Shown here: in pieces, positions 449 to 994 of the stretch | How positions within the stretch are numbered: the first letter of the stretch is position 1 | How the letters are laid out: the number at the start of each line of letters is the position of its first letter | From: an uncultured Poribacteria bacterium | Lineage (GTDB): Bacteria; Poribacteria; WGA-4E; WGA-3G | Assembly: GCA_951813565.1 (NCBI GenBank) | Contig: OX638351.1 | Coordinates: 3,904,001-3,968,000 of the forward strand | Direction of reading: 5' to 3' | DNA: 64,000 nt | Program-made: the position numbers and the translations under genes | Notes under the pieces: generated by a model | Told to the model about the DNA's origin: nothing | Databases searched by the model: none | Seen by the model: only the letters and a program-made list of their open reading frames with translations

Positions 449-879
449 CAGGGTTATTTAGTTTTCGCTTTTTCTGGCGTATTTCATCACAACGTTAATG
501 TTTTATAGCAGCATTGTGGTCGGGTTTCGCTATCACCCTATCCATAGCCTCAACTTAGAAAAAAGATGTGCGATGCAAAGTAGTAGGCACACGCCGGGGA
601 ATGCCATAAGGCATTCATACCCGGTGAATGACTAAAGACGAATGCACTTGGTAGAATACGCTTTTGGTATTCTACATGATTCGCCATGATTCATACCGTT
701 GATTTCTTGATTTGGCGCATGCTGCGTTGATTTGGCTGAATCATGCGGAATACCAAAAGCGTATTCCGCCAAAAGGCATTCATAGCGTTGATTTATGGGT
801 TTCGCAAGCTCTACCCGACGGACGATATAAACTCACAGTAAAACTCAGTAACTGATAATTCTTAAAACTAAATAACCCT
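449..879. mobile_element. ISAs1-type MITE containing REP remnants and stacked micro-elements
   Basis: Ends CAGGGTTATTTAGTTTT (449) and AAAACTAAATAACCCT (864-879); 10-bp direct repeat ACCCTCAGAA at 439-448 and 880-889; ends match the ISAs1 TIR at 8511/9772. Confidence 0.8.
596..795. repeat. Nested stack of 28-35 nt hairpin micro-elements
   Basis: Repeated GAATGCC-loop-GCATTCATA(C/G)CGTTGATT, GCATGCTGCGTTGATT and GAATAC-GCTTTTG-GTATTC-CATG units, the same families as at 27374-27510 and 28821. Confidence 0.8.
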
Positions 880-994
880 ACCCTCAGAAAACAACTTCTT
901 GAAATTAACGGCAATATCTGATATAATGATAATATCAACTTCCCAATGGTATAGAAAAGCAATCATCAGGATAGGTAACACAGGAGACAACATC

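Follow-up and report, generated by a model that had tools for sequence, protein, structure and literature searches.

The spread and mosaic pile-up of very small palindromic repeats, such as the repetitive extragenic palindromes (REPs) and the small dispersed repeats (SDRs), are still poorly understood. The SDRs, numbered SDR1-8, were reportedly described from heterocyst-forming cyanobacteria by Elhai et al. 2008 (Genome Res 18:1484), with lengths said to be ~20-27 nt. Passages in papers that cite them give a size of "some 20 bp" (PMC2884548), place the insertion of SDR5 between nucleotides 3 and 4 of the HIP1 sequence (PMC4390886) and mention SDR-like repeats from Nostocaceae only (PMC5861425); SDRs are cited in PMC3116915 as well. 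REPs, bacterial interspersed mosaic elements (BIMEs) and REP doublets forming hairpins (REPINs) are treated together with REP-associated tyrosine transposases (RAYT, TnpA-REP) in Nunvar 2010 (PMC2817692) and Bertels and Rainey 2011 (PMC3116915). The present analysis concerns a stack of short hairpin repeats at positions 596-795 of a 64,000-nt stretch of DNA (the window, G000:C1:3904001-3968000) from an uncultured Poribacteria bacterium, the genome of which is one 5.43-Mb contig with 43% G+C. Coordinates are those of the window unless marked as genome positions. As judged from sequence comparison, the stack appears to be one copy of a composite that arrived as a ready-made block and was not built on site. 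We consider it probable that this composite is made of genus-specific, tiny hairpin repeats that represent non-autonomous mobile DNA landing at hairpins.

The original prediction had described 596-795 as a pile of interrupted units that prefer their own hairpins as targets, so that the stack grew iteratively and recorded the order of insertion. Its descriptive part holds: the segment consists almost entirely of short hairpin modules, each present tens to hundreds of times in the 5.4-Mb genome, and all of the motifs it listed (bulged units, three GTTGATT, a TTGATT remnant and CATG) are found where it had placed them. Growth on site is not borne out. Window 594-816 (223 nt) recurs at genome positions 502176-502398 (98% identity) and 638466-638692 (94%), 619-805 recurs at 3803911-3804097 (97%), and the 142-nt block 595-736 is found at 36 other places with 92-99% identity. 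The four long copies have the right flank GGGTTTCGC..CTCTACCC in common, their left flanks differ, and the join always coincides with the first base of the bulged unit. These copies bear directly on the idea that units were inserted here one after another into the hairpins of earlier units, with layers that record the order. While the nesting itself is real, every layer having filled and empty counterparts elsewhere, and while the bulged form is found most often in the loops of other units, the full 223-nt architecture is present at three other places behind different left flanks, sub-blocks occur at 36 to 45 other places, and the nested core is shared with 11 of 39 other genomes of the genus. 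Moreover, the half unit at 716-734 could not arise by insertion at this site. For this locus, local growth thus appears already contradicted by the sequence, and we regard it as highly improbable.

The stack was also taken apart computationally by a breadth-first peel of 560-860, in which a deletion was admitted only if the 22-nt junction that it creates is found at two or more other places in the genome. The 301 nt were reduced to 136 nt, which is exactly the single-unit state. Such a state exists in a paralog of the whole host repeat (plus strand, genome ~5192650-5192800), where a single 35-nt bulged unit lies between the same flanks; it corresponds to the starting point that local growth would require. 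The peel proceeded by two block steps (76 nt, then 88-89 nt), passed through 59 intermediate states and finished in 7 end states, with several routes to choose from. As these routes are equally supported, the order of events cannot be read at the locus, which is a further point against growth in place. The iterative peeling suggested in the original prediction therefore does lead back to a single unit, albeit via blocks and in no unique order, and the notion of a readable insertion record had to be dropped. The most economical history suggested by these comparisons is that a single-unit ancestral state, still present at the paralog, was replaced by a ready-made ~200-nt stack from another copy. 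Replacement could have occurred by ectopic conversion, for which the unit and the GGGTTTCGC repeat would provide homology (~9-26 nt of the unit start on the left, the unit end plus the GGGTTTCGC repeat, ~50 nt, on the right); alternatively, the whole block may have moved. Since copying involves whole stacks, no local history can be read from a stack of such units.

The same comparison has a bearing on the integrity of the assembly. Logan short-read contigs from four runs of four studies contain the unique flanks 200-520 and 855-1400 with at most two differences. None of them bridges 520-855, none reveals intermediate stacks or strain-level polymorphism, and word depth in the runs reaches thousands inside the stack versus 20-40 in the unique flanks. 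Lack of bridging and high word depth could be read as signs of a collapsed or chimeric join of repeats; by itself, the short-read result (flanks covered, repeats unbridged) neither confirms nor refutes the assembly. An artefact is nevertheless extremely improbable, given that the genome was assembled as a single 5.43-Mb contig, that the three further genomic copies display the same architecture with point differences of their own, and that an independently assembled public metagenome contig is identical to the window over 725-1000, junction to unique DNA included. This contig ends inside a tail in the stack. Its identity lends independent support to the right third of the stack and to the junction with unique DNA, whereas the left two thirds, bridged by no short-read contig, rest on this assembly and on the three paralogous copies. 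A joint 602->768 in run X5 most likely derives from the single-unit paralog. The metagenomic check envisaged in the original prediction was thus fruitful for 725-1000; nested intermediates were not found in the short-read contigs of the four runs.

The units of which the stack is composed are discrete modules, present with and without one another at identical sites. In a scan for filled and empty sites, 12-nt flank pairs adjacent in at least three genome places were compared with the same flanks separated. The resulting 1677 length differences peak at 34 nt (141), 35 nt (133), 69 nt (99, i.e. 2x35), 76 nt (51) and 27-28 nt (129), and the 35-nt bulged subtype postulated earlier is a real, discrete unit. 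The basic unit of 34-35 nt consists of a G and a hairpin followed by a tail of 9 nt, namely GTTGATT and two further bases. In Form I, a 9-bp stem is followed immediately by the tail, e.g. GCAGCATGC...GCATGCTGC, GCCAAATGC...GCATTTGGC and GATGAATGC...GCATTCAGC. Form II, the bulged form, has a 7-bp stem GAATGCC...GGCATTC and an ATACC or GGACC spacer before the tail. Two further modules are related to these forms: a bulged hairpin of 27-28 nt that lacks a tail, and a 26-nt hairpin with a CATG head. A hairpin precedes GTTGAT at 798 of 6740 sites (~222 expected), compared to 3.3% at random positions. By a crude map of open reading frames, 567 of 684 strict units are intergenic; 364 have repeats on both sides, against a background of 22% for intergenic 12-mers, and neither flank is repeated in 142, some of these being chance hairpins. 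No replication-strand bias was apparent along the chromosome: replichores could not be clearly delimited by GC skew, and the two orientations of the units are in balance. Five identical 34-nt units GCTGAATACCAAAAGCGTATTCAGCGTTGATTTG form a pure head-to-tail array at genome 2747694-2747830 (minus-strand coordinates), which shows that tandem amplification takes place in the absence of nesting. A long degenerate tandem array at genome ~499500-500100 consists of short units of the GTATCGGT/GTATCAGT/GTGTCT type and has no relation to the hairpin family.

Filled and empty sites are precise, and the same site can hold varied subtypes. At GAAAACCC^CTCCCACA, where on the other strand the GTGGGAG head of one REP family meets its hairpin, 19 events were found, and 5 stem types are represented among them. 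The site CCGAGGCG^CAATGAAT in another REP accounts for 11 events of 5 types, and in three Form I subfamilies the loop is filled at one constant position (37 events, 1 nt ambiguity). The GGAGCGAyCTCC REP family retains an intact TGTA head in 136 of 168 copies and carries an upstream unit in 18, in 15 of which the unit lies directly between head and hairpin. Hairpin loops are the usual home of the bulged form, those of other units being the commonest: its 5' end motif has 499 matches, distributed over Form I-type loops of other units (134), loops of the GGGG(T/C)CYC REP (98), positions directly behind another bulged hairpin (81), the GTAGTAGGCACAYGCC REP (4) and other contexts (182, near the chance number of ~165 for a 9-mer). 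The 26-nt CATG module is present in 60 copies, for which nine host contexts are listed; in every case it follows A[AGC]T within the 5' arm of the hairpin that hosts it. Junction ambiguity is variable and usually amounts to 0-3 nt, rising to 9-12 nt in tandem arrays. Left flanks vary (CCC, ACACG, GGCG, TTTG), with CCC preferred 5' of Form I units (64-77% at -3 to -1, 204 distinct contexts). Since the filled and empty sites are clean and located mostly in hairpin loops and at REP hairpins, the earlier proposal that hairpins serve as targets holds for the family, if not for local growth of this stack.

Fixed length, precise boundaries, subtypes sharing sites in unrelated hosts, compensated stems and loop nesting together argue for the insertion of discrete modules at hairpin sites. 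The units would act, now or formerly, as non-autonomous mobile DNA that lands in or beside DNA hairpins, i.e. in loops or arms of other units, in REP-hairpin loops, at the REP head-hairpin junction, or head-to-tail behind another tail. Once nested, a composite would be propagated as a block. A reading without any transposition has to be weighed against this, in which recombination, gene conversion or template switching among hairpin repeats, aided by short shared motifs (GCC...GGC, GTTGATTTGG), shuffles pieces between recurrent breakpoints and the "units" are simply these pieces. Block copies with one flank family in common and the other not are in line with such a process, as are the orphan half unit 716-734, the 8-nt tail duplications seen 80 times, the tandem arrays with their 9-12-nt boundary ambiguity, the lack of any observed target duplication, and the failure to find a dedicated enzyme among the Y1 loci and unit-flanked genes examined (see below). 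It is difficult to reconcile with different stem subtypes at exactly the same position in unrelated hosts (REP-A, the GGAGCG REP, the GCAATGAATTGC REP, REP-B loops and Form I loops) where junctions share only 0-3 nt, with the sharply fixed unit length of 34-35 nt, and with the 142 units, chance hairpins among them, that have no repeated flank on either side. As a full account of the family we judge it unlikely; still, at least for the copying of blocks, for the half unit and for the duplicated tails, recombination or template switching is probably the explanation.

In the genomes sampled, the family does not extend beyond a single genus of Candidatus Poribacteria, sponge-symbiont bacteria whose non-coding DNA it fills. 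The pattern GCGCATNNNGCGTTGATT occurs 400 times in this genome and 4 to 266 times in each of 36 of the 39 other genomes of the genus; it is absent from G001, G042 and G053. It is missing from all 16 genomes that represent three other families of the order, and a reversed control pattern gave no match anywhere. Among the 117 loci listed from a species-genome collection, the records with multiple hits are Candidatus Poribacteria metagenome-assembled genomes, and single matches in unrelated taxa are no more than chance would produce with 15 fixed bases in 596 Gb. The nested hairpin has a 46-nt core, of which this genome contains 39 copies (34 exact); the core is present in 11 of the 39 other genomes with species-specific loop variants (e.g. 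14 copies in G008). For the three-tier hairpin of 622-705, the core in G048, G012 and G002 is up to 100% identical, compared to ~82-84% for a neighbouring protein gene. This difference is suggestive of either recent exchange between species or strong constraint.

Constraint would be expected if the stack were a selected functional element, i.e. a structured RNA, an array of terminator or mRNA-stabilising hairpins, or a BIME-like protein-binding mosaic. Apart from the conservation of the core, such a role is hinted at by the strong fold of 594-797 as single-stranded DNA (-50.5 kcal/mol vs -23.6 +/- 2.9 for 200 shuffles, z -9.2), in which the two inverted copies of the CATG module are joined (648-682 with 738-772), by the resemblance of a hairpin plus T-rich tail to an intrinsic terminator, and by a mild enrichment of units between convergent genes (0.83 per kb vs 0.55-0.73 per kb elsewhere). 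Yet orientation relative to genes is inconsistent, with 81 co-oriented units vs 78 in ++ gaps and 120 vs 75 in -- gaps, counts which are inflated by block copies. No Rfam 15 family matches at gathering score in the whole 64,000-nt window, species of one genus carry anything from 0 to 400 copies, a spread typical of selfish repeats, and the stack lies in a divergent promoter region away from gene ends. A functional role therefore appears improbable. An intrinsic terminator array in particular was rejected, in view of the missing co-orientation and the position between divergent genes.

As to the enzyme, HUH single-strand transposases are the obvious candidates. The Y1_Tnp matches of the genome are ten in number, comprising five IS200/IS605-type genes and five RAYT-like genes, two of the latter with an internal stop codon. 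Every RAYT-like gene has a repeat family of its own on its flanks, GTAG-headed in three cases, and it is in or next to precisely those GTAG REP families that the units lie. Three of the RAYT-like genes, all on G000:C1, are L008 (5070893-5071213, minus strand), L009 (3549623-3549949, minus strand, one internal TAG) and L010 (242089-242412, plus strand), bracketed by the REP families GGCGAGGTTTCCTAACCTCGCC, GTAGGAGGGTTTTAAACCCC and GGGAGCGAGCTCCAG...CGCGAC, respectively; an array of at least seven REP copies follows L010. The IS200/IS605-type genes L001-L005 (G000:C1:3745735, 228440, 2158799, 4320373 and 2036476) are near-identical tnpA genes, four of which share a conserved downstream sequence resembling a tnpB-type gene. 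Their left ends carry a CCTTTAGGTAGGGGATGTAGACGGC motif unrelated to the micro-units. In addition, 14 genes have the tail motif within 150 nt on both sides, five of them with inverted tail motifs. All eight genomes with more than 100 units have at least two Y1 matches, as do most of the others. G001 (same genus, 97% complete, 4 contigs) is the only one of 40 genomes with neither a Y1_Tnp match nor the unit pattern, which makes it a possible comparator free of both.

With regard to mechanism, it is conceivable, though doubtful, that the units move as single-stranded hairpin DNA on which a HUH transposase of the host, either RAYT or IS200-like, acts in trans; as no Y1 or other DNA-enzyme gene among those examined is tied to the units and Y1 genes do not track with unit counts, this enzymatic step is one that we infer. 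A bolder and rather unlikely version would have the GTTGATT-tailed hairpins as a hitherto undescribed kind of minimal, gene-less mobile DNA of 26-35 nt that recognises structure (loops, the REP head-hairpin junction) over sequence, is moved as single strands by host REP transposases acting on the wrong substrate, and evolves by recursive self-assembly. On this view a nested composite would be a new mobile element, because the ends of the outer unit are kept. If this were true, the units would be among the smallest mobile DNA known, and the three-tier 76-nt hairpin common to several species would be a second-generation element.

Several observations weigh against an interpretation of the units as mobile DNA and should be considered together. 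None of the ten Y1 transposase genes of the genome is flanked by units, nor was any of nine RAYT-like or IS200-like Y1 loci examined in relatives consistently so; the loci in both sets are flanked by other, GTAG-type repeats. In a Pfam scan, four of the five genes with inverted tail motifs turned out to be CopD, a WD40-like propeller, SpoIIM and DUF3108, with no nuclease, recombinase or transposase among them. Over the 40 genomes of the genus, Y1 genes and unit counts do not track cleanly: G023 (19 units) and G010 (17 units) have units and no Y1 genes, while G042 and G053 have five Y1 genes each and no units. No target duplication was detected and, beyond the CCC 5' of Form I, no strong target motif. 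The comparison of filled and empty sites detects only repeated contexts, and among its smaller length peaks (8, 14 and 20 nt) some of the 14- and 20-nt "events" reflect nested versus tandem arrangement and no insertion. Pairs 3, 4, 5 and 8 of the Form I stem occur as two to three Watson-Crick types at high copy number (379 units, 40 stem variants), but this census demanded pairing, and only the variety of pair types is informative on structural constraint. Finally, strain-level polymorphism at the locus could not be observed in the short-read contigs of the four runs.

The stack can be described module by module from left to right. The left part of a low-copy host repeat, GGGTTTCGCTATCAC...GATGTGCGATGCAAA, extends over 505-579 (+ strand), as seen by alignment with the single-unit paralog at genome ~5192650-5192800. 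It is followed at 580-595 (+) by the 5' half of a GTAG-headed REP, GTAGTAGGCACACGCC; a start of the stack within a REP had been recognised correctly in the original prediction. In intact copies of this REP the hairpin runs on with GTGTGCCGTA, the 3' half that is absent here, and the junction ...CAYGCC|GGGGAATGCC is found in 4 of the 82 genome contexts of GTAGTAGGCA listed. The hairpin and spacer of a bulged Form II unit, GGGGAATGCC-ATAA-GGCATTC-ATACC (GGGGAATGCCATAAGGCATTCATACC), occupy 596-621 (+), with the tail appearing only at 698. Deletion of 613-688 restores a complete Form II unit and creates a junction with 44 copies in the genome. Between this spacer and tail sits the 76-nt nested hairpin block CGGTGAATGAC...CATGATTCATACC (622-697, +), for which 51 events of 76 nt separate genome copies. 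Its three tiers are a tail-less bulged hairpin on the outside, a hairpin in the middle (637-650 / 679-688) and, innermost, a hairpin module with a CATG head, CATG-TA-GAATACC-AAAA-GCGTATTC-TA (652-678, - strand), one of the 60 modules in nine listed host contexts; of 78 listed matches, 45 have the inner module in the context of the 76-nt block.

The tail of the first unit, GTTGATTTCTTGATTTGG (698-715, +), has an 8-nt internal duplication, and removal of 699-706 leads to a junction with 28 copies; length events of 8 nt number 80 genome-wide. The orphan 3' half of a 9-bp-stem Form I unit, CGCATGCTGC plus GTTGATTTG, follows at 716-734 (+). Its 5' half GCAGCATGCCACAC is missing at the locus and precedes the block in most genome copies. 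The right-hand bulged unit, GCTGAAT|GCCAAAAGGCATTCATAGCGTTGATTTA (735-795, +, composed of 735-741 and 768-795), is interrupted by the 26-nt CATG-headed hairpin module CATGCGGAATACCAAAAGCGTATTCC (742-767, +), which sits between GAAT and GCC of the host's 5' arm. Removal of 742-767 leaves GCTGAAT plus GCCAAAAGGCATTCATAGCGTTGATTTA, just as had been claimed. The genome contains 10 uninterrupted and 10 interrupted copies of this bulged unit, 3 of the uninterrupted ones between the same flanks. The module at 742-767 forms an inverted repeat with 648-682 (35-nt arms, 89% complementary). The right part of the host repeat, GGGTTTCGCAAGCTCTACCCGACGG...CTGATAATTCTTAAAACTAA, covers 797-885 (+), and its first 20 nt flank the other three stack copies too. 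GGGTTTCGC is a direct repeat at 522-530 and 797-805, on either side of the segment made up of REP and stack; it belongs to a further repeat family, with 72+96 copies of TGGGTTTCGC, often after GTTGATTTAT. Taken together, GTTGATT is found at 698-704, 726-732 and 787-793 (three in 200 nt vs ~0.02 expected by direct calculation), the TTGATT remnant at 707-712, and CATG at 675-678, 685-688 and 742-745. The 10-mers across 594-800 occur 20-300 times per strand, as compared to ~5 expected.

Repeated DNA spans 446-896 of the window, between divergent genes: the left neighbour is a minus-strand gene that ends just before the window, and the right neighbour is a plus-strand gene that starts near 995. 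The site of the stack is accordingly a divergent promoter region rather than a gene end. The best sigma-70-like match of the region is found at 899-927 (TTGAAA, 17 nt, TATAAT with an upstream TG; 11/12), immediately beyond the right end of the repeats, with the ATG at 995 following ~70 nt downstream. Conservation in relatives begins at ~891 of the window sequence. In the 39 relatives the two flanking genes never lie side by side. At the 11 loci that were examined, the downstream gene has unrelated DNA upstream of it; an empty site from another species is not available for comparison.

Various kinds of small mobile or structured DNA were considered for comparison. Reportedly, REPs serve as targets of insertion sequences (Tobes and Pareja 2006), and MITEs (miniature inverted-repeat transposable elements) of bacteria that target hairpins or REPs resemble the units in using DNA hairpins as landing sites. 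Such MITEs are 100-300 nt long, with terminal inverted repeats, target duplications and a recognisable parent insertion sequence, whereas the units have none of these: each is one hairpin plus an asymmetric tail, with a junction ambiguity of 0-3 nt in place of a fixed-length target duplication. Elements derived from IS200/IS605 (palindrome-associated, PATE-like) differ in having two subterminal hairpins, compared to one per unit, and a fixed 4-5-nt target, where the left flanks of the units vary; the ends of the genome's own IS605-type copies are unrelated to the units. A likeness to integron attC sites or to the TTGAT target of ISDra2 was considered and set aside, as GTTRRRY is not matched by the tail and no new units begin immediately behind TTGAT. 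The mobile GC clusters and double-hairpin elements of fungal mitochondria are tiny palindromic selfish modules that insert into each other and into hairpins without a dedicated transposase gene. They differ from the units in type and composition of the genome, and neither sequence nor tail motif is shared.

In the published literature searched, there is no account of such repeats in Poribacteria; the papers listed on palindromic repeats in this group deal with CRISPR or with sponge genomics in general. The analysis defines the GTTGATT-tailed family, maps its sites and its distribution over the genus, and shows its stacks to be copied as blocks. The family constitutes an unusually clean data set, with hundreds of fixed-length units and their filled and empty sites in one complete genome, compensating stem subtypes, copy numbers from 0 to 400 among sister species, and composites that can be traced across species. 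For the genomics of sponge symbionts, it should be noted that these repeats break short-read assemblies at every occurrence.

The comparison with REP, BIME and REPIN-RAYT systems gives a mixed picture. Like REPs and REPINs as portrayed in the sources cited above, the units are imperfect palindromes of ~35 nt with a short conserved single-stranded extension, present in hundreds of intergenic copies and in mosaic clusters; short imperfect palindromes at high copy number and mostly between genes are what the census found (798 vs ~222 expected; 567/684). The other three of the four defining features tested are absent. In place of a GT[AG]G head, the units carry GTTGATT 3' of the hairpin, GTAG heads being restricted to the host REPs; at the Y1 loci examined here and in relatives, no cognate RAYT gene is flanked by inverted unit copies; and unit arrays are direct (period of 34-35 or 69 nt) or nested, not inverted doublets (REPINs) or alternating BIMEs. 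In addition, and unlike the elements of those sources, the units insert into other hairpins. With the SDRs, as defined by citing passages, they share very small, gene-less modules that occur solo, in tandem, and nested in each other and at precise sites in other repeats, as well as precise site-specific insertion, the lack of a known enzyme and restriction to a single lineage. They differ from the SDRs so described in length (34-35 nt, with modules of 26-28 nt), in the conserved GTTGATT tail, in their targets, which are hairpin loops and REP junctions instead of HIP1, and in their host, which belongs to the Poribacteria and not to the Nostocaceae. Because of this host and the rarity of HIP1, with just 50 sites in the genome, membership in SDR1-8 is unlikely. 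Still, going by the citing passages, the SDRs of Nostocaceae are the closest described phenomenon, and REP/BIME/REPIN-RAYT systems provide the closest mechanistic frame.

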